DNA of 64,000 nucleotides from Escherichia coli (lineage in GTDB: Bacteria > Pseudomonadota > Gammaproteobacteria > Enterobacterales > Enterobacteriaceae): the NCBI RefSeq assembly GCF_011045215.1, contig NZ_CP049201.1, one strand, 5' to 3'. Of this stretch, positions 53,530-62,317 are shown piece by piece (the first letter of the stretch is position 1; every line of letters begins with the position of its first letter). A program made the position numbers and the translations under genes. Below the pieces are notes generated by a model. The model searched no databases. It saw only the letters and a program-made list of their open reading frames with translations, and had not been told where the DNA came from.

Positions 53530-53647
53530 ATCATTGGATGAGCGCAAAGAGAATGACCGGTTTGTGAATGTAATTTTATGAATTTAAATGGTTTTATCTT
53601 TCAGTAGAAACCTGAAACGTTCATCAAACACTAAGGTTATTTCCTCA

Positions 53648-53674
53648 AGGGCAGATTCTTTTCTGCCCTTTTTT
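53648..53674 (+). terminator. intrinsic terminator downstream of fruA
   Basis: AGGGCAGA-ttctttt-CTGCCCT-TTTTT. Confidence 0.75.
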
Positions 53675-53914
53675 AGTGTTCATGTTCTGTGCATCCCGTC
53701 ACAAATTCCTCGCTTTTGTAATTCAGGCATTTAATCGCATTTTGTGAGCCTGCTCAAATCTGCCCGCTTTGCCTCTCTGGCGGCAATTTACTTTACGTAA
53801 AACATGCATACTATGAGCACATGTTTAAATATGAACACATGTTTAAACCGTCTTTGCAGTATCTATATCCTTGTGGATTGACAGGGTTGGTAATTTTTTA
53901 CCAGAGGACGTGCT

Positions 53915-54856
53915 ATGCGCGAAAAGGATTATGTCGTAATTATAGGTTCGGCGAATATTGATGTCGCCGGATATTCACATGAATCATTAAATTATGCGGA
54001 TTCAAATCCAGGTAAAATAAAATTTACGCCTGGTGGAGTAGGGCGAAATATTGCACAAAATCTGGCGTTGCTGGGTAACAAAGCCTGGCTACTGAGCGCA
54101 GTAGGCAGTGATTTTTATGGCCAATCGCTGCTAACGCAAACCAATCAATCTGGCGTTTATGTCGATAAATGCCTGATTATGCCGGGAGAAAATACGTCGA
54201 GCTATTTATCATTACTCGATAATACCGGTGAAATGCTGGTTGCTATAAATGACATGAATATTAGCAACGCTATTACAGCTGAATATCTCGCACAGCACCG
54301 TGAATTTATTCAGAGGGCAAAGGTCATTGTCGCGGACTGTAATATCAGTGAAGAGGCACTGGCATGGATTCTGGATAATGCCGCCAACGTACCCGTATTT
54401 GTCGATCCGGTTTCAGCGTGGAAATGTGTCAAAGTGCGCGACCGTCTAAATCAGATCCACACTCTGAAGCCAAACCGCCTTGAAGCGGAAACCCTGAGTG
54501 GGATAGCGCTGTCAGGGCGTGAAGATGTGGCAAAGGTTGCCGCCTGGTTCCATCAACATGGCCTGAACCGACTGGTATTGAGCATGGGCGGCGACGGCGT
54601 TTATTACAGTGATATCAGCGGTGAAAGTGGTTGGTCTGCGCCGATCAAAACCAATGTTATTAATGTTACCGGAGCGGGCGATGCCATGATGGCGGGACTT
54701 GCTTCGTGTTGGGTAGACGGAATGCCGTTTGCCGAATCTGTTCGTTTCGCACAGGGATGTTCGTCAATGGCGCTCTCCTGTGAATACACCAATAACCCCG
54801 ATTTATCGATTGCCAACGTTATATCGTTAGTGGAGAACGCAGAATGTCTGAATTAA
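53915..54856 (+). CDS. psuK: pseudouridine kinase PsuK (YeiC)
   Basis: 313-aa PfkB-family ORF (…TPGGVGRNIAQNLALLG…GAGDAMMAG…). Confidence 0.9.
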   Translation: MREKDYVVIIGSANIDVAGYSHESLNYADSNPGKIKFTPGGVGRNIAQNLALLGNKAWLLSAVGSDFYGQSLLTQTNQSGVYVDKCLIMPGENTSSYLSLLDNTGEMLVAINDMNISNAITAEYLAQHREFIQRAKVIVADCNISEEALAWILDNAANVPVFVDPVSAWKCVKVRDRLNQIHTLKPNRLEAETLSGIALSGREDVAKVAAWFHQHGLNRLVLSMGGDGVYYSDISGESGWSAPIKTNVINVTGAGDAMMAGLASCWVDGMPFAESVRFAQGCSSMALSCEYTNNPDLSIANVISLVENAECLN

Positions 54857-55782
54857 AAATTTCCCCTGAATTATTACAAATTTCCCCGGAAGTGCAGGAC
54901 GCTTTAAAAAACAAAAAACCGGTTGTGGCGCTGGAATCGACCATTATTTCTCACGGGATGCCGTTCCCACAAAATGCCCAGACCGCAATTGAAGTTGAAG
55001 AAACTATTCGTAAACAGGGCGCTGTACCTGCCACTATCGCCATTATTGGCGGCGTGATGAAAGTTGGTTTAAGCAAAGAAGAAATTGAATTACTGGGTCG
55101 TGAAGGGCATAACGTGACCAAAGTTAGTCGTCGCGATTTACCTTTTGTTGTTGCCGCCGGAAAAAATGGCGCAACCACTGTGGCTTCAACGATGATTATT
55201 GCGGCGCTTGCCGGAATTAAAGTATTTGCCACCGGGGGAATTGGTGGTGTGCATCGCGGGGCGGAACATACCTTCGATATTTCTGCCGATTTGCAAGAAC
55301 TGGCAAATACTAATGTCACCGTTGTTTGTGCCGGGGCGAAATCTATTCTCGATTTAGGATTAACCACTGAGTATTTAGAAACCTTCGGTGTGCCGTTAAT
55401 TGGCTATCAGACTAAAGCGCTGCCTGCGTTTTTCTGCCGTACCAGCCCGTTTGACGTCAGCATTCGTCTCGACAGCGCCAGTGAAATTGCCCGTGCAATG
55501 GCGGTGAAATGGCAAAGCGGGCTGAACGGTGGCCTCGTGGTAGCGAACCCGATCCCGGAACAGTTTGCGATGCCAGAACACACTATCAATGCGGCGATCG
55601 ATCAGGCGGTAGCTGAAGCTGAAGCGCAGGGTGTTATTGGTAAAGAAAGTACGCCATTCCTGCTGGCGCGCGTTGCTGAACTGACCGGCGGTGACAGCCT
55701 GAAATCCAACATTCAACTGGTGTTCAACAACGCCATTCTGGCGAGTGAAATTGCCAAAGAATACCAGCGTCTCGCGGGTTAA
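54844..55782 (+). CDS. psuG: pseudouridine-5'-phosphate glycosidase PsuG (YeiN)
   Basis: 312-aa ORF overlapping the psuK 3' end; indigoidine-synthase-A-like family. Confidence 0.9.
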   Translation: MSELKISPELLQISPEVQDALKNKKPVVALESTIISHGMPFPQNAQTAIEVEETIRKQGAVPATIAIIGGVMKVGLSKEEIELLGREGHNVTKVSRRDLPFVVAAGKNGATTVASTMIIAALAGIKVFATGGIGGVHRGAEHTFDISADLQELANTNVTVVCAGAKSILDLGLTTEYLETFGVPLIGYQTKALPAFFCRTSPFDVSIRLDSASEIARAMAVKWQSGLNGGLVVANPIPEQFAMPEHTINAAIDQAVAEAEAQGVIGKESTPFLLARVAELTGGDSLKSNIQLVFNNAILASEIAKEYQRLAG

Positions 55783-55875
55783 TTTCTGACGGGCAGAAAG
55801 CCGTCGCCCGTACTCATCAAACATACCAAAACCTGGCGCTGACGCCGGGTTTACTGGCATGAAGGGAAAATCATT

Positions 55876-57126
55876 ATGGACATAATGAGAAGTGTTGTGG
55901 GGATGGTGGTGTTACTGGCAATAGCATTTCTGTTGTCGGTAAATAAAAAGAGCATCAGTTTGCGCACGGTTGGAGCCGCACTGCTGCTGCAAATCGCTAT
56001 TGGTGGCATCATGCTCTATTTTCCGCCGGGAAAATGGGCTGTAGAACAGGCGGCATTAGGCGTTCATAAAGTGATGTCTTACAGTGATGCCGGTAGCGCC
56101 TTCATTTTTGGTTCGCTGGTCGGGCCGAAAATGGATGTCCTCTTTGACGGTGCGGGTTTTATCTTCGCCTTTCGCGTACTCCCGGCGATTATCTTCGCCA
56201 CTGCGCTCATTAGTCTGCTGTACTACATTGGCGTGATGGGGCTGCTGATTCGCATCCTTGGCAGCATTTTCCAGAAAGCCCTCAACATCAGCAAAATCGA
56301 ATCTTTTGTTGCGGTTACCACTATTTTCCTCGGGCAAAATGAGATCCCGGCGATCGTTAAACCGTTTATCGATCGCATGAATCGCAACGAGTTGTTTACC
56401 GCAATTTGTAGCGGGATGGCGTCCATTGCGGGTTCGATGATGATTGGTTATGCCGGAATGGGCGTACCAATTGACTACCTGTTGGCGGCATCGCTGATGG
56501 CGATCCCCGGCGGTATTTTGTTTGCACGTATTCTTAGTCCGGCAACCGAGCCTTCGCAGGTCACATTTGAAAATCTGTCGTTCAGTGAAACGCCGCCAAA
56601 AAGCTTTATCGAAGCGGCGGCGAGCGGTGCGATGACCGGGTTGAAAATCGCCGCCGGTGTGGCGACGGTGGTAATGGCGTTTGTCGCAATTATTGCGCTG
56701 ATTAATGGCATTATCGGCGGAATTGGCGGCTGGTTTGGTTTTACCAATGCTTCTCTGGAAAGTATTTTTGGCTATGTGCTGGCACCGCTGGCGTGGATCA
56801 TGGGTGTGGACTGGAGTGATGCCAACCTTGCGGGTAGCCTGATTGGGCAGAAACTGGCGATTAACGAATTCGTCGCTTACCTGAGTTTCTCCCCATACCT
56901 GCAAACGGGCGGTACGCTGGAAGTGAAAACCATTGCGATTATCTCCTTTGCGCTTTGTGGTTTTGCTAACTTTGGTTCTATCGGTGTTGTCGTTGGGGCA
57001 TTTTCGGCTATTTCGCCAAAACGTGCACCGGAAATCGCTCAGCTTGGTTTACGGGCGCTGGCAGCAGCAACGCTTTCCAACCTGATGAGCGCGACCATTG
57101 CCGGGTTCTTTATTGGTTTAGCTTGA
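55876..57126 (+). CDS. psuT: NupC-family nucleoside transporter PsuT (YeiM)
   Basis: 416-aa polytopic ORF; paralogue of nupX at 59063. Confidence 0.9.
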   Translation: MDIMRSVVGMVVLLAIAFLLSVNKKSISLRTVGAALLLQIAIGGIMLYFPPGKWAVEQAALGVHKVMSYSDAGSAFIFGSLVGPKMDVLFDGAGFIFAFRVLPAIIFATALISLLYYIGVMGLLIRILGSIFQKALNISKIESFVAVTTIFLGQNEIPAIVKPFIDRMNRNELFTAICSGMASIAGSMMIGYAGMGVPIDYLLAASLMAIPGGILFARILSPATEPSQVTFENLSFSETPPKSFIEAAASGAMTGLKIAAGVATVVMAFVAIIALINGIIGGIGGWFGFTNASLESIFGYVLAPLAWIMGVDWSDANLAGSLIGQKLAINEFVAYLSFSPYLQTGGTLEVKTIAIISFALCGFANFGSIGVVVGAFSAISPKRAPEIAQLGLRALAAATLSNLMSATIAGFFIGLA

Positions 57127-57193
57127 GTTTCATTGCCGGATGTACTCGCTTATTAAGCGTTGCATCCGGCAATCGCGCTATTGCAAATAATTT

Positions 57194-57853
57194 TTACTGC
57201 ATCATCCCGGAGAATTTATTCTCCGGGTCCATCTCCAGCGCCAGCCCTGACAACTGCTTTCTGTTTTTAATTAGATATCCTTTCTTGCTTTTAATTAATA
57301 AACCGTCGTGAATGAATTGCGCAAGAACATATAAAAGATGTCGATAAGAAACGCCTAAATACTCTGCCGCTTGCGTATGCTTTTCGTGATAAAGATCACC
57401 TTCTTGTGAGAGTAATATAAATGCTGCCAGGCGATTCACTAACGGAAATGATTGATTCTGAGTTAAAGAAACAATATTACGATAATTTTTATGACTTAAG
57501 GTGACGCAAAGTTTTCGTAAAAATAGGGTATCGTTTAATAACAGCGGACGGTAATGTTTCATAGGGAGCGCAAGGCACCAACACTCTTCAATCGCCTGTA
57601 CTGCACGTGGTTCATGGTCTTTATCGATTAACTCAATCTCGCCAATAAAACAGGGGGCGGCAAAGAAATCGATCAGCGACACGCGACCATTAGCTAGCGT
57701 GGCGTAAAGCCTGGCGCGGCCTCGCGTCAGGTAAAACAGCCAGGACGGCTGTTGCCCTTCCTGCACAATGTAGTCACGCGCTAAAAAATGAAACAGCCGC
57801 GTATCGGCTGAAACATCCGTTAAAAAGCAATCCTTAAACGCGGATTCACTCAT
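57194..57853 (-). CDS. yeiL: CRP/FNR-family transcriptional regulator YeiL
   Basis: 219 aa from the ATG at 57851-57853 ([24 protein letters not shown]…); cNMP-binding-like domain and C-terminal HTH. Confidence 0.88.
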
Positions 57854-58021
57854 CAATTGCAGCTTAAGATCATTATTGTGGATTTCTTTCACGATGTTTA
57901 TCCGCTATGAGATTTCTCATATTTAGCATACGTACGCTGTTGTTAAGATTCAATCATCGGCCCGGTCGAATTTTCTTTGCTGTAGAAAAAATAACGCAAC
58001 TGGAAACAGAGGAAATAAACA

Positions 58022-58963
58022 ATGGAAAAGAGAAAAATTATTCTGGATTGTGATCCGGGTCATGATGATGCTATTGCAATGATGATGGCAGCGAAACATC
58101 CGGCAATAGATTTATTAGGCATCACTATTGTAGCGGGTAATCAGACGCTTGATAAAACATTAATTAATGGCCTGAATGTTTGCCAGAAACTGGAGATTAA
58201 TGTTCCGGTTTATGCGGGGATGCCGCAGCCCATTATGCGTCAACAAATCGTTGCCGATAATATTCACGGTGAAACCGGACTGGATGGCCCGGTATTCGAG
58301 CCGCTGACCCGCCAGGCAGAAAGCACTCATGCGGTGAAATACATCATTGATACCCTGATGGCAAGCGATGGCGATATCACTCTGGTGCCGGTTGGTCCGC
58401 TTTCAAATATCGCGGTGGCAATGCGTATGCAACCCGCGATCCTGCCCAAAATCCGTGAAATTGTGCTAATGGGCGGCGCTTACGGTACAGGCAACTTCAC
58501 GCCATCTGCCGAGTTCAACATCTTTGCTGACCCGGAAGCCGCACGCGTGGTGTTCACCTCTGGCGTTCCATTAGTGATGATGGGCCTCGATCTTACCAAC
58601 CAGACCGTTTGCACCCCGGACGTAATTGCTCGGATGGAAAGGGCAGGCGGCCCTGCCGGAGAGCTGTTCAGCGACATCATGAACTTCACTCTCAAAACGC
58701 AGTTCGAAAACTACGGCCTGGCTGGCGGCCCGGTGCACGACGCCACCTGCATCGGTTATCTGATTAACCCTGATGGCATTAAAACCCAGGAGATGTACGT
58801 CGAAGTGGACGTCAACAGTGGCCCTTGTTATGGGCGTACCGTCTGCGACGAGCTGGGCGTTCTTGGCAAGCCCGCTAATACCAAAGTCGGCATCACTATT
58901 GATACCGACTGGTTCTGGGGCTTAGTCGAAGAGTGCGTGCGCGGCTACATCAAAACCCATTAA
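58022..58963 (+). CDS. rihB: pyrimidine-specific ribonucleoside hydrolase RihB (YeiK)
   Basis: 313-aa ORF with nucleoside hydrolase N-terminal DCDPGHDD motif. Confidence 0.93.
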
Positions 58964-59062
58964 GTGTTGATAACAAGCCGGGCCGGTATCGCAAGATGCA
59001 GGCCTGGCTATTTCTGATGGGCAGAAAGCCGTCGCCCAATATGACATGAAGAGATAATCACT

Positions 59063-60313
59063 ATGGATGTCATGAGAAGTGTTCTGGGAATGGTGGTATT
59101 GCTGACGATTGCGTTTTTACTGTCAGTAAACAAGAAGAAGATCAGCCTGCGTACCGTTGGCGCGGCGTTAGTGTTACAGGTCGTGATTGGCGGCATTATG
59201 CTTTGGTTACCGCCAGGGCGTTGGGTCGCTGAAAAAGTCGCTTTTGGCGTGCATAAAGTGATGGCGTACAGCGACGCGGGTAGCGCATTTATCTTCGGTT
59301 CTCTGGTCGGACCGAAAATGGACACCTTATTTGATGGCGCAGGATTTATCTTTGGTTTCAGAGTATTACCGGCAATTATCTTCGTCACCGCGCTGGTGAG
59401 TATTCTCTATTACATCGGTGTGATGGGGATCTTAATTCGCATTCTCGGCGGTATCTTCCAGAAAGCATTAAATATCAGCAAGATCGAGTCATTCGTCGCG
59501 GTCACTACCATTTTCCTCGGGCAAAACGAAATTCCGGCAATCGTCAAACCCTTTATCGATCGGCTGAATCGCAATGAATTATTTACAGCGATTTGTAGTG
59601 GCATGGCCTCAATTGCCGGTTCGACAATGATTGGTTACGCCGCACTGGGCGTACCTGTGGAATATTTGCTGGCGGCATCGTTAATGGCGATCCCAGGCGG
59701 GATCTTGTTTGCCCGCCTGTTAAGCCCGGCTACGGAATCTTCGCAGGTTTCTTTTAATAACCTCTCTTTCACCGAAACACCGCCAAAAAGCATTATTGAA
59801 GCCGCCGCGACAGGGGCAATGACCGGGCTGAAAATCGCTGCGGGTGTGGCAACAGTGGTGATGGCATTTGTTGCCATCATTGCGTTAATTAACGGTATTA
59901 TCGGCGGCGTTGGCGGCTGGTTTGGTTTTGAACATGCCTCGCTGGAGTCCATTTTAGGTTATCTGCTGGCCCCACTGGCGTGGGTAATGGGTGTTGACTG
60001 GACTGATGCGAATCTTGCCGGGAGTTTGATTGGACAGAAACTGGCAATAAATGAATTTGTCGCTTATCTCAATTTCTCACCCTATCTGCAAACGGCTGGC
60101 ACTCTGGATGCTAAAACCGTGGCGATTATTTCCTTCGCGTTGTGCGGTTTCGCTAACTTTGGTTCTATCGGGGTGGTGGTGGGGGCGTTTTCTGCGGTTG
60201 CGCCACACCGTGCGCCGGAAATCGCCCAGCTTGGTTTACGCGCGCTGGCGGCGGCGACACTTTCTAACCTGATGAGTGCCACCATTGCCGGGTTCTTTAT
60301 TGGTTTAGCGTAG
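59063..60313 (+). CDS. nupX: NupC-family nucleoside transporter NupX (YeiJ)
   Basis: 416-aa ORF, highly similar along its length to psuT. Confidence 0.9.
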   Translation: MDVMRSVLGMVVLLTIAFLLSVNKKKISLRTVGAALVLQVVIGGIMLWLPPGRWVAEKVAFGVHKVMAYSDAGSAFIFGSLVGPKMDTLFDGAGFIFGFRVLPAIIFVTALVSILYYIGVMGILIRILGGIFQKALNISKIESFVAVTTIFLGQNEIPAIVKPFIDRLNRNELFTAICSGMASIAGSTMIGYAALGVPVEYLLAASLMAIPGGILFARLLSPATESSQVSFNNLSFTETPPKSIIEAAATGAMTGLKIAAGVATVVMAFVAIIALINGIIGGVGGWFGFEHASLESILGYLLAPLAWVMGVDWTDANLAGSLIGQKLAINEFVAYLNFSPYLQTAGTLDAKTVAIISFALCGFANFGSIGVVVGAFSAVAPHRAPEIAQLGLRALAAATLSNLMSATIAGFFIGLA

Positions 60314-60368
60314 TGTGCGATTTATGAGCCGGATAAGATGCGGTCAAGCGTCGAATCCGGCAACATTG

Positions 60369-61457
60369 TTACACCATTGGCACTAATGAAAGCGCGTTAT
60401 CGGCAGACAGGGTAGGGTTGTTTAAGCTGCCGCTGGCGCGTGAAATTGCCGCGCAGGCCATCGCAAAACGGGCGCTGTCACGGAAATTGTTTCCTTCCAG
60501 AAAGCTATATACCAGGCCCGCCATAAAACCATCGTCAGCACCAAAACTGTCTACTGTCGTATGCGCTGGTGCGGTCAGCAAAAATTGTTCTCCATCCTTT
60601 TCGCTGCAATAAACTGACTCATCGGGCAAATAAACAAACAGTTGCTGAACACCTTGCTGATGCAACGCATTCACTGCAGCATTACGGTCAGCATCGCTGG
60701 TGATCGCCTGTCCCCATAAAATTTCCAGCTCCGGTAAAGTGGGTTTCAGGGTGTGAATATGCGCCAGCCAGTGTTTGATTTTGCCCGCTTTGAATTCTGA
60801 AACGGTATCGACAAACACCGGGATCTCACCAGCGAGGGTAAAGACCCATTCCAGCGCCTCGGCTGTCAGGTTGCAATCAGCCAGTACCACGCCCGCATGA
60901 CGAAGTAAATCGCGCGACCCGTTCAATAATTGCGGCGATAACTGTTCCAGCAGATGGGTATCGTTAATCGCCAACACGGTTTCATCGTCTCGATTGGCAA
61001 TTGCCAGATACGTCGATGTGCTTTGGCCATGTAAACGAACGCAGCCGGAGACATTCACGCCGGCGCGGCGCGTTTCTTCCAGGAGCATTTCGCCATAAAA
61101 GTCATCGCCAATCACTGAAAGCAAATGGACGTCACGGCCTAACAGCGCCAGATTGTGGGCGATGTTGCGTCCCACGCCGCCCGCTGAGCAATGAATTGTA
61201 CCGGGATGAGAAGCCGATTGCGGGTAACGGATATCCGCCATCCCGCGAATATCCATATTGATTGTCCCCACCACTACGCAGTATTCCTGCTCGGTGAGAA
61301 TGTAACCTTTGCCTTTAATCCGGCCTTTGCGCATTAAATCCATAATATGCGCCGCAACGCGCGAACGGCTGATTTGCAGCATGTCCGCAATTTCGTTCTG
61401 CTGAATCAGCGGGTTACGCCGTAAAATTGCAAGGATCTCCTTTTCCCGGTTATTCAT
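60369..61457 (-). CDS. yeiI: HTH-fused PfkB-family sugar/nucleoside kinase YeiI
   Basis: 362-aa ORF: N-terminal winged-HTH-like region (MNNREKEILAILRRNPLIQQNEIADMLQISRSRVAAHI…) fused to a ribokinase-like domain (…GGVGRNIAHNLALLG…). Confidence 0.88.
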   Translation of the reverse strand: MNNREKEILAILRRNPLIQQNEIADMLQISRSRVAAHIMDLMRKGRIKGKGYILTEQEYCVVVGTINMDIRGMADIRYPQSASHPGTIHCSAGGVGRNIAHNLALLGRDVHLLSVIGDDFYGEMLLEETRRAGVNVSGCVRLHGQSTSTYLAIANRDDETVLAINDTHLLEQLSPQLLNGSRDLLRHAGVVLADCNLTAEALEWVFTLAGEIPVFVDTVSEFKAGKIKHWLAHIHTLKPTLPELEILWGQAITSDADRNAAVNALHQQGVQQLFVYLPDESVYCSEKDGEQFLLTAPAHTTVDSFGADDGFMAGLVYSFLEGNNFRDSARFAMACAAISRASGSLNNPTLSADNALSLVPMV

Positions 61458-61459
61458 CT

Positions 61460-62317
61460 TCAGGCTACCGCTTTTTCAGTTTGTTGCGCTTTCAGCCAGG
61501 CGATCTCTTCTGCCCAGATATCCGGGTTGATGGTTTCGAGGATCAGCGGAATGCCGTCGAAACGGTCGTCCTGCATGATCCAGCGGAACGCATCATGACC
61601 GATATTGCCTTCACCGAGGCTATGATGGCGGTCAACGCGGCTGCCAAAGGTGCTTTTCGCATCGTTAAGGTGCATCCCGCGCAGATACTTAAAGCCGACA
61701 GTACGGGCAAAATCCGCGAATGTTTTCTCGCATTCGGCTGGAGTACGCAAATCATACCCGGCAGCGAAAGCATGGCAGGTATCAATGCAGACGCCGACGC
61801 GGGATTTATCTTCCACGCCGTCGATAATCGCCGCGAGATGTTCGAATTTAAACCCTAAGTTACTGCCCTGACCGGCGGTGTTTTCTATCACCGCTGTCAC
61901 ACCTTGAGTTTTATCCAGCGCAATGTTGATGGATTCGGCAATACGCGCAAGGCAATCCTCTTCTGAAATCTGCATCAGATGGCTGCCAGGGTGGAAGTTG
62001 AGCAAAGAAAGCCCCAGCTGTTCGCAACGCTGCATTTCATCTATAAAGGCATCGCGCGATTTTTCCAGAGCTTCAGTGACCGGATGTCCGAGGTTAATCA
62101 GATAACTGTCGTGGGGAAGAATTTGCGCCGATGTGTAGTGATATTTTTCACAGGCGGCTTTGAATTCATCGATGGTTTGCGTCGTGAGCGGTGCGGCACG
62201 CCACTGACGTTGGTTTTTGGTGAACAAGGCAAACGCGGTTGCGTCGATTTCGGCGGCGCGAATTGCGGCATTTGCCAGACCGCCAGCAGCACTAACGTGC
62301 GCTCCAATGTATTTCAT
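61460..62317 (-). CDS. nfo: endonuclease IV (AP endonuclease)
   Basis: 285-aa [42 protein letters not shown]…. Confidence 0.95.

Follow-up and report, generated by a model that had tools for sequence, protein, structure and literature searches.

YeiI, a kinase-like protein with a winged helix-turn-helix, as a likely pseudouridine-responsive regulator of the psuK-psuG-psuT operon of Escherichia coli

Results

The psuK-yeiI region of E. coli

We analyzed a 64-kb stretch of the Escherichia coli contig NZ_CP049201.1 (the window, in whose coordinates all positions are given), in which the pseudouridine operon psuK-psuG-psuT is followed by yeiL, rihB, nupX and yeiI (Table 1). Our subject is YeiI, a PfkB-type kinase-like protein with an N-terminal helix-turn-helix (HTH) that is still listed as being of unknown function in the sections of a 2022 and a 2025 paper that mention it (PMC9061257, PMC12506659). 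On balance we favor the view that YeiI is a transcriptional regulator, most likely a repressor, of the convergent psuK-psuG-psuT operon and that it would respond to pseudouridine. All seven open reading frames (ORFs) were found where a preliminary description of this DNA had placed them, the RefSeq E. coli annotation of the region uses identical names, and Pfam and NCBIfam profiles support each of the seven assignments, confirming the genes, their order and their coordinates. The region is core to E. coli, being at least 80% present in 5368 of 5426 complete genomes.

Table 1. Genes, protein domains and predicted regulatory features of the psuK-yeiI region, in window coordinates
Feature	Position	Strand	Remarks
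psuK -35 hexamer TTTACT	53787-53792	+	conserved before psuK (class A) and HTH-psuK (class B) as (c)TTTACT
possible third, inverted half-site (AAAACATG) between -35 and -10	53799-53806	-	seen by eye; partly kept as AAA-ACAnGC; weak evidence
psuK -10 hexamer TACTAT, 16-bp spacer	53809-53814	+	aligned with TATAAA / TAcTAT of other promoters
predicted YeiI operator site 1 (ATGAGCACATGTTTAA), over -10/+1	53813-53828	+	16.4 bits, second best single-site match in window
predicted YeiI operator site 2 (ATGAACACATGTTTAA), 18 bp 3' of site 1	53831-53846	+	18.7 bits, best single-site match
small conserved hairpin in psuK leader, ending at Shine-Dalgarno	53887-53904	+	folds in 21/21 Enterobacteriaceae leaders
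psuK, pseudouridine kinase without HTH	53915-54856	+	NF007355 714 bits vs cutoff 540; canonical KPNRLE, GGDG, GAGD
psuG, pseudouridine-5'-phosphate glycosidase	54844-55782	+	PF04227 E=2.7e-132; 13-bp overlap with psuK
psuT, CNT-family transporter of psu operon	55876-57126	+	TIGR00804 515.8 bits; after psuG in both genome classes
yeiL, CRP/FNR-type regulator, accessory insert	57194-57892	-	NF007707 416.5 bits vs 180; PF00027 and PF13545 both match
rihB, pyrimidine ribonucleoside hydrolase, accessory insert	58022-58963	+	NF007417 728 bits
nupX, young psuT paralogue, accessory insert	59063-60313	+	TIGR00804 498.9 bits; 88% amino acid, 78% nucleotide identity to psuT
yeiI, whole gene (b2160 in K-12)	60369-61457	-	
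yeiI kinase-like (PfkB) domain, residues 56-362, predicted pseudouridine sensor, degenerate catalytic motifs	60369-61292	-	
yeiI winged HTH, residues 1-55	61293-61457	-	PF13412
nfo, endonuclease IV, directly 5' of yeiI	61460-62317	-	

Two classes of HTH-kinase and their gene context

With YeiI as query, a database search brought up hundreds of HTH-PfkB proteins of full length; aligned against PsuK, they split sharply into two classes. Class A, YeiI proper, comprises Enterobacteriaceae proteins at least 65% identical to YeiI, with the motifs KPTxxE and FGADD and with YeiI as their closest E. coli relative; a more distant Affinibrenneria protein and the metagenome protein P0104 group with it. 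Class B, here called HTH-PsuK, has KPNRLE and TGAGD, and its closest E. coli relative is PsuK (53-60% identity, versus about 50% for YeiI). It is found in Yersinia, Serratia, Hafnia, Morganella, Photorhabdus, Xenorhabdus, Gilliamella, Pasteurellaceae, Shewanella, Aliivibrio and Chromobacteriaceae, where its members are annotated as "PfkB family carbohydrate kinase" or "pseudouridine kinase".

We examined gene context in 80 loci from species-representative genomes, annotated by tblastn with the window proteins. The HTH-kinase is the first gene, with psuG directly after it and usually a CNT transporter next, in 42 of 42 evaluable class B loci. This is the psuK-psuG-psuT order of E. coli; the called genes agree in Yersinia and Serratia, and a very distant HTH-kinase (about 30% identity) likewise precedes psuG. 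No separate yeiI was present within the stretch examined at these 42 loci, all of them outside the Enterobacteriaceae. In class A loci yeiH-nfo-yeiI is followed by psuT-psuG-psuK, oriented the other way, and by fruA; yeiI converges directly on psuT-psuG-psuK in 35 of the 36 that could be evaluated. This convergent arrangement occurs in Citrobacter, Enterobacter, the Klebsiella oxytoca group, Kluyvera, Buttiauxella, Leclercia, Kosakonia, Pseudocitrobacter and E. albertii. Genomes carry either one HTH-psuK gene or an HTH-less psuK together with yeiI.

The unit formed by yeiI and psuT-psuG-psuK also exists without nfo, in Affinibrenneria, on the metagenome contig that encodes P0104 (locus L087) and in some Salmonella enterica. 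Its neighbors in the last of these are a RelB/ParE toxin-antitoxin pair, a fragment of a transposase and a gene resembling thymidine phosphorylase (locus L093, 7001-11315), and it looks like a horizontally acquired cassette. In Citrobacter koseri, yeiI, psuK, psuG and the transporter have been degraded together to fragments. Because yeiI abuts psuKGT across the Enterobacteriaceae, in genomes most of which have no yeiL-rihB-nupX, we conclude that yeiI belongs with psuKGT and not with rihB-nupX.

A conserved tandem operator at the psuK promoter

The psuK promoter (TTTACT-16-TACTAT) matches the consensus at 8 of 12 positions and is weak, which is why a simple promoter scan misses it. Across 41 distinct class B promoters, a -35 element of cTTTACT and a -10 element of TATAAA are followed by a tandem element, AAACAAAC-GCAT-GTTTA and then AAACAAAC-AAGT-GTCC, with an 18-bp period and the palindromic core CAAAC-N4-GTTTG; this tandem element ends at the start codon. 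The corresponding class A sequence, upstream of the HTH-less psuK, reads TTTACTTT, TAcTAT and GAAC-ACAT-GTTTGAtAgTGAAC-ATGT-GCTC. The two-site layout is common to the 41 class B and 29 class A promoters.

An operator matrix of 35 columns was built from class B (non-Enterobacteriaceae) promoters only, and the whole window was scanned with it on both strands; as the matrix contains no Enterobacteriaceae sequences, this test of the window is not circular. The top tandem match lay at 53810-53844 and scored 19.4 bits, while the next unrelated locus scored 5.6 bits, and 19.4 bits was reached in none of 150 random 64-kb windows generated with a first-order Markov model. With a single-site matrix, the two best matches in the window were the two predicted psuK operator sites. 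These scans of the window found no operator-like sites near the promoters of yeiL, rihB, nupX, yeiI or nfo, nor any in the yeiL-rihB, rihB-nupX, nfo-yeiI and yeiH-nfo regions, and the next-best matches were inside coding sequence. In 35 of 35 other class A loci (about 17 kb each, both strands) the top match was 60-207 bp upstream of psuK, and the operator was also found in the Affinibrenneria and P0104 loci. A second operator-like tandem site on the P0104 contig (L087 913-947, 12.9 bits), some 7.5 kb from the one at psuK, has a gene for a LysR-type regulator on one side and an ORF of 112 residues on the other, and might be an additional target.

YeiI and HTH-PsuK have almost the same recognition helix, SRSxVAxHIMxL (SRSRVAAHIMDL versus SRSGVAGHIMNL). 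Judging from these alignments, the operator was kept when PsuK lost its HTH, and the matching domain is still present in a linked protein, YeiI; we infer that YeiI binds this operator. The position of the two sites, over -10/+1 and just 3' of it, favors repression.

The psuK leader hairpin (Table 1) has stems of 5-7 bp that differ among genomes (GGUAA/UUACC, GGCAA/UUGCC, GGUAU/AUACC, CAGCA/UGCUG, GGAC/GUCC) and folding energies of -5 to -9 kcal/mol, versus about -3.5 for shuffled sequences. Class B leaders have no such hairpin. It could influence translation or mRNA stability.

A recurrent adaptive mutation in the psuK promoter

A single-nucleotide polymorphism (SNP) described as "psuK/fruA intergenic 2257444 A>C" was recurrent during evolution of E. 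coli in the mouse gut in the Gordo laboratory, and an A>C change in the psuK promoter was likewise recovered from long-term stationary-phase cultures, according to the tables and passages that list these mutations (PMC7518454, PMC7858067). We converted coordinate 2257444 of NC_000913.2 to 2259422 of NC_000913.3 with an offset of 1978, chosen because four srlR mutations of the same tables fit only that value. The SNP then corresponds to window position 53789, 126 bp upstream of the psuK ATG (-126) and the third base of the -35 hexamer, which changes from TTTACT to TTGACT. The parts of the two papers that report the SNP give no mechanism for it (PMC7518454, PMC7858067); it is a promoter-up mutation. 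Its location in the -35 hexamer validates the psuK promoter and indicates that psuKGT expression was limiting in those settings. It carries no direct information on YeiI.

The same mutation bears on whether YeiI might act at the psuK operator as a pseudouridine-dependent activator. Selection of a -35 up-mutation, and not of yeiI loss, in the evolved populations described in these passages would be expected if YeiI were needed for expression, and the promoter is intrinsically weak (8/12). The sites, however, lie over -10/+1 and 3' of it in every lineage, the classical place of a repressor and ill suited to a class I or class II activator, and we consider activation improbable.

In pseudouridine-rich human urine, PsuG was one of the five most strongly induced proteins of uropathogenic E. 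coli (PMC9149909); the psu operon is therefore inducible.

Domains and fold of YeiI

The preliminary description had recognized in YeiI a PfkB protein similar to PsuK and an HTH at the N terminus, and the profiles bear this out, the HTH being of the winged type: Pfam places HTH_24 at residues 1-48 and PfkB at residues 58-348, and the kinase-like domain is 39% identical to PsuK. YeiI and PsuK score 231 and 235 bits, respectively, with PF00294 (PfkB/ribokinase; gathering score 25.8), and the winged HTH scores 41.2 bits with PF13412, against 21.9. Pfam matches are limited to PfkB, HTH_24 and HTH_11, with no ROK (ASKHA-fold) domain. YeiI matches NF007416 / PRK09954, the "sugar kinase" equivalog that represents the YeiI family, over its full length (1-362) with 809.7 bits versus a cutoff of 561, and falls below the cutoff of the pseudouridine kinase equivalog NF007355 (EC 2.7.1.83) with 258.9 bits versus 540. 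The "YeiI" named in a LeuO paper proved to be a slip for YeiE and was set aside.

An AlphaFold2 model of YeiI made from a 106-sequence alignment had a predicted local distance difference test (pLDDT) score of 93 and a predicted template modeling score of 0.87. It consists of three helices and a beta wing at residues 3-53 (pLDDT 83-95), a short linker and a PfkB fold. Its closest structures in a Foldseek search of the Protein Data Bank (PDB) were those of E. coli PsuK (7VTD; template modeling score 0.95, root-mean-square deviation 1.8 Å), and all of its structural neighbors belong to the ribokinase family. The same search of the PDB found no deposited structure with the HTH-PfkB architecture, and the isolated HTH gave marginal matches only, to GerE- and Lrp-type structures.

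A retained pseudouridine pocket and altered catalytic motifs

In two sets of PsuK crystal structures, pseudouridine is contacted by N14, D16, S30', G41, N45, Y97, N112, M114, N143, V166, S167, K170 and D256 (PMC9061257). Twelve of these 13 residues are identical in YeiI; the sole change replaces M114 with Thr, at a position that is Val in Arabidopsis PUKI. Ser/Thr30', Asn143 and Lys170, the base-recognition residues that are the hallmark of pseudouridine kinases (PMC9061257), are present in YeiI as S83, N196 and K223 and are conserved in 94-95 of 95 homologues. The GG dipeptide of the substrate lid (G93-G94 in YeiI) is invariant in all 95. Our evidence as a whole favors the proposal that YeiI regulates transcription and uses its kinase-like domain to sense a nucleoside.

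Three motifs of phosphoryl transfer and ATP binding are altered. NxxE, whose Asn187 and Glu190 in PsuK correspond to T240-L-P-E243 in YeiI, has Thr in place of Asn in 12 of the 13 YeiI sequences compared at species level, while every PsuK and HTH-PsuK sequence keeps Asn; Asn187 adjoins density assigned to Mg2+ in the PsuK structure (PMC9247573). The small ATP-binding loop GxxG, as defined in that paper (PMC9247573), is lost, PsuK G225-G-D-G228 having become P278-D-E-S281, and all YeiI-type sequences have Ser, Thr or Ala where PsuK has G228. In the GAGD anion hole (YeiI G306-A-D308-D309) the second Gly is Asp, giving GADD, in 13 of 13 YeiI sequences, with the catalytic Asp309 retained. A column-by-column comparison identified 15 columns that are at least 93% invariant in PsuK and class B yet fixed differently in YeiI. 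In PsuK numbering these clade-specific changes include N187T, G228S (along with G225P), T252F, G255D, L287R and T292I. Several of the 15 are in the Mg2+, ATP-loop, anion-hole and K+ regions, whose roles in PsuK have been described (PMC9247573, PMC9061257): T252F and G255D fall within the GAGD anion hole, and L287R and T292I in the segment holding the monovalent cation. The metagenome protein P0104 has in addition lost Lys185 and the catalytic Asp. Within the PfkB family, NxxE and anion-hole changes strongly lower phosphoryl transfer. The earlier idea of YeiI as a working kinase therefore fits poorly with three such motifs altered throughout the clade, and we suggest that kinase activity has probably been lost.

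YeiI might nonetheless be bifunctional, regulating psuKGT while also acting, with changed kinetics or use of cofactors, as a kinase of pseudouridine or of a close analogue. Such a protein would account for the retention of the catalytic Asp309, Lys238, the GG motif and the entire ribose/base pocket, for the intact fold and for the purifying selection on the kinase-like domain, although such selection is equally expected of a ligand-binding or dimerization domain. The changes to NxxE, to GxxG and to the second Gly of GAGD are fixed throughout the clade, however, and P0104 dispenses with the catalytic Asp and Lys despite the same gene arrangement. In addition, a psuK mutant is reportedly unable to use pseudouridine, according to the passage of PMC12506659 that cites Preumont 2008, which indicates that YeiI does not replace PsuK. 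We regard bifunctionality as unlikely.

Evolution of YeiI

In a neighbor-joining tree of kinase domains (310 columns, 300 bootstraps), the YeiI clade was monophyletic with 98% support and Enterobacteriaceae PsuK with 100%. The grouping of PsuK with gammaproteobacterial class B to the exclusion of YeiI had 65% support, and that of all three together 45-57%. The YeiI stem is long, with a distance to gammaproteobacterial class B of 0.90 compared with 0.63 for PsuK, while diversity within the clade is ordinary (0.32 for YeiI, 0.26 for PsuK), which points to a burst of change followed by constraint. The ratio of nonsynonymous to synonymous substitution rates (dN/dS) is 0.06-0.10 for yeiI, the same as for psuK; it is about 0.03 in the HTH, the most constrained part of the gene, and 0.07-0.12 in the kinase-like domain. 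A tblastn search for relic HTH coding sequence upstream of psuK returned only noise. Where the preliminary description saw a kinase with an extra HTH, the polarity is apparently the reverse: the HTH-kinase fusion is widespread and appears to be the ancestral form, with PsuK a copy that has lost the HTH.

Linkage of yeiI to nfo

The yeiI start lies 2 bp past the nfo stop codon, with no obvious Shine-Dalgarno sequence, and a gap this short makes it probable that yeiI is co-transcribed with nfo. The adjacency is kept in Enterobacteriaceae loci and is absent in Affinibrenneria, Salmonella and L087. A published expression cluster places nfo and yeiI among SoxS-regulon genes (zwf, fumC, sodA, fldB), and a genomic SELEX (systematic evolution of ligands by exponential enrichment) study lists an RNA polymerase peak between nfo and yeiI. 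Together, the contiguity, the clustering and the peak suggest that YeiI levels may rise under oxidative stress.

This linkage has a bearing on a further possibility, that the tandem motif serves as a promoter or leader element or as the site of a different factor, and that YeiI has unrelated targets or is a relic expressed behind nfo. Cognate binding is deduced from co-occurrence, and yeiI is apparently carried on the nfo transcript, both of which such an account would accommodate. It would leave unexplained that the motif follows the HTH family across gamma- and betaproteobacteria, at the promoter of the gene or operon that encodes it, that the yeiI-psuKGT unit persists without nfo, and that the HTH is the most constrained part of yeiI. 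We give this account little credence.

The yeiL-rihB-nupX insert

Between psuT and yeiI, yeiL-rihB-nupX forms a patchy insert that is missing from most genomes with yeiI. We saw it only in E. coli and close clades, one Citrobacter amalonaticus, Phytobacter diazotrophicus, Entomohabitans and one further lineage, and yeiL was present only where rihB was too (in the context loci and likewise in locus L094). The insert is a genuine, accessory pyrimidine-nucleoside module, in which a CRP/FNR-type regulator is divergent from a hydrolase and a transporter. Both PsuT and NupX exceed the subfamily cutoff of TIGR00804 (CNT/NupC nucleoside transporters), 442 bits. In 2024, NupX was reported to transport uridine and cytidine at low efficiency and PsuT to carry neither (PMC11241209), so that the statement that the substrates of NupX are not fully defined is out of date.

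Of the two adjacent modules proposed in the preliminary description, yeiL-rihB-nupX thus holds as a module, while synteny argues against counting yeiI as part of it. On that reading YeiI would be a kinase-regulator that senses or phosphorylates the RihB/NupX substrate and controls rihB-nupX and yeiL; it draws on the adjacency of yeiI and nupX in E. coli and on the uridine and cytidine that NupX carries (PMC11241209) and RihB hydrolyzes. That adjacency is not a fixed one, since co-occurrence across the context loci shows yeiI tracking psuKGT, abutting psuT in most genomes, and the divergent E. coli haplotype described below has kept yeiI without nupX. Moreover, the only predicted operator is at the psuK promoter, with none near the promoters of yeiL, rihB or nupX in the window scan, and the pocket residues, including the N1-contacting Ser, are specific to pseudouridine. 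Our comparisons of the region found no regulatory link between YeiI and yeiL-rihB-nupX. We therefore judge control of the second module by YeiI to be very improbable, and retain psuKGT as the probable target.

A perfect inverted repeat, ATGAGA-TT-TCTCAT, occupies 57907-57920, between yeiL and rihB and a short way upstream of the yeiL start. It is a candidate binding site for a regulator, which might be YeiL.

E. coli has two deeply diverged haplotypes of psuK (81% nucleotide identity), psuG/psuT (89% nucleotide identity) and yeiI (85% amino acid identity). In the divergent haplotype the intervening yeiL-rihB (96%) and the flanking nfo (98%) are ordinary, so psuK and yeiI co-vary around a conserved insert. 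Approximately 1000 of the 5426 genomes are within the 80-90% identity band. The divergent haplotype, represented by the annotated genome GN03449 (L091), is similar to E. albertii. In that genome nupX is a 66-bp remnant (L091 6780-6845), with rihB and yeiL intact, and the other sampled genomes of the 80-90% band likewise have one transporter listed. We considered whether single-transporter genomes arose by a deletion through psuT/nupX recombination, with a chimera of psuT 5' and nupX 3' sequence as the expected product; counts of diagnostic sites along the gene gave no clear switch, and this was not supported. In E. coli CUPS04 everything between psuK and a truncated yeiI is gone, and Escherichia sp. 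MOD1-EC7003 is without psuK and psuT.

PsuT and NupX from the same genome are 94% identical in amino acid sequence in Citrobacter and 92% in Phytobacter, versus 86-90% to E. coli NupX. This closer similarity within a genome than across genera indicates gene conversion or repeated duplication. As within-genome pairs are closer than positional orthologues, we rejected NupX as a stable orthologous group and make no claim of conserved specificity.

Upstream of the psu operon, a strong terminator-like hairpin at 53647-53670 (+ strand), AAGGGCAGA...TCTGCCCTT followed by a T-run, has no Rfam match. It lies about 120 bp 3' of the hairpin that follows the fruA stop and far upstream of the psuK promoter, leaving about 110 nt of unexplained sequence between the two. 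No known RNA family matched the region above threshold.

Discussion

The gene order, the conserved operator and the state of the YeiI motifs can be accommodated in a single scheme. The ancestor would have been one bifunctional protein, a winged HTH joined to a pseudouridine kinase, encoded by the first psu gene and bound to tandem operator sites across its own -10/+1. This gene would then have been duplicated in the lineage that gave rise to the Enterobacteriaceae (and at least one genus of Pectobacteriaceae). The copy in the operon, PsuK, would have lost the HTH and kept the enzymatic role, and the YeiI copy would have kept the HTH and the pseudouridine pocket while losing the ATP, Mg2+ and anion-hole features used for phosphoryl transfer. 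In E. coli, YeiI dimers on both operator sites (53813-53846) would block RNA polymerase until pseudouridine entered the kinase-like cleft, where Ser83 of the partner subunit may contact N1 as Ser30 does in PsuK. In PsuK itself, pseudouridine binding closes the beta-thumb dimer, with a marker distance changing from approximately 66 to 51 Å, and the trigger is the Ser30'-N1 contact (PMC9061257). By extension from that movement, closure of the YeiI dimer could shift the tightly tethered N-terminal HTH domains and release the DNA.

Several points weigh against this interpretation. The tables and passages of the evolution studies that list the psuK promoter SNP report no yeiI loss-of-function alleles, while the repressors srlR and frlR were hit repeatedly (PMC7518454, PMC7858067). 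A single -35 up-mutation as the sole recurrent psu change is not what a simple repressor knock-out would predict, which we count as a mild objection; it is compatible with a repressor already induced in that setting, or with a weak promoter. The neighbor-joining tree of kinase domains left the branching point of YeiI undecided, and a duplication at the base of the Enterobacteriaceae is plausible from the sequences. The operator could be bound by another E. coli protein. Asp309, Lys238 and the GG motif are still present in E. coli YeiI, making residual or altered kinase activity possible, and M114T and D29A, in or beside the pocket, could change the ligand preference.

YeiI has the PfkB fold in common with the pseudouridine kinases PsuK (E. 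coli YeiC; 7VTD, 7VKP) and Arabidopsis PUKI (7C1X), as well as the hallmark residues S30, N143 and K170, 12 of the 13 ligand contacts and the beta-thumb dimer elements. It differs from PsuK in its N-terminal winged HTH and in having TxxE, PDES and GADD for NxxE, GxxG and GAGD. With HTH-PsuK proteins it shares the domain order, a near-identical recognition helix and the layout of operator and promoter. They, unlike YeiI, have canonical catalytic motifs, are encoded by the first gene of a psuG operon and have kinase domains closer to that of PsuK; presumably they are enzyme and autoregulator in one.

The ROK repressors (NagC, Mlc and B. subtilis XylR) combine a winged HTH with a non-catalytic domain of sugar-kinase fold that binds a sugar as inducer, and HTH-less ROK kinase paralogues occur in the same genomes. 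The likeness to YeiI is one of logic only, as the folds are ASKHA and PfkB/ribokinase, respectively, and there is no sequence relationship. Enzyme folds also serve as ligand sensors controlling the cognate pathway in BirA, NadR, B. subtilis PurR (phosphoribosyltransferase fold) and NrtR (Nudix). Of these, BirA and NadR are still catalytic, like HTH-PsuK, and PurR and NrtR are non-catalytic, like YeiI; their folds and pathways are different. We know of no PfkB-fold one-component regulator and no pseudouridine-responsive regulator, and found neither in the literature, in a search that did not cover curated regulon databases. HTH-PsuK and YeiI may, we suggest more tentatively, be the first PfkB-fold one-component transcription factors and the first dedicated pseudouridine sensors, an enzyme-repressor having been split into the enzyme PsuK and the pseudokinase repressor YeiI while the promoter and operator stayed in place.

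If YeiI has this role, a K-12 y-gene gains a proposed target operon, a 34-bp operator and a ligand. Sequence-based and machine-learning tools label YeiI a pseudouridine kinase, as described in the relevant passages of PMC12506659, yet psuK mutants reportedly cannot use pseudouridine, a conflict that would be explained if YeiI is not a kinase. The YeiI-operator pair would, if the reading is true, be a pseudouridine biosensor for producer strains in mRNA manufacture, and deletion or retuning of YeiI may matter in such pseudouridine-producing strains. The operon under its predicted control is strongly induced in urine-grown uropathogens (PMC9149909) and, according to the reported mutation tables, a repeated target of adaptation in the mouse gut. 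For the family, YeiI and PsuK would be a clean natural case of a bifunctional enzyme-regulator split into separate genes.

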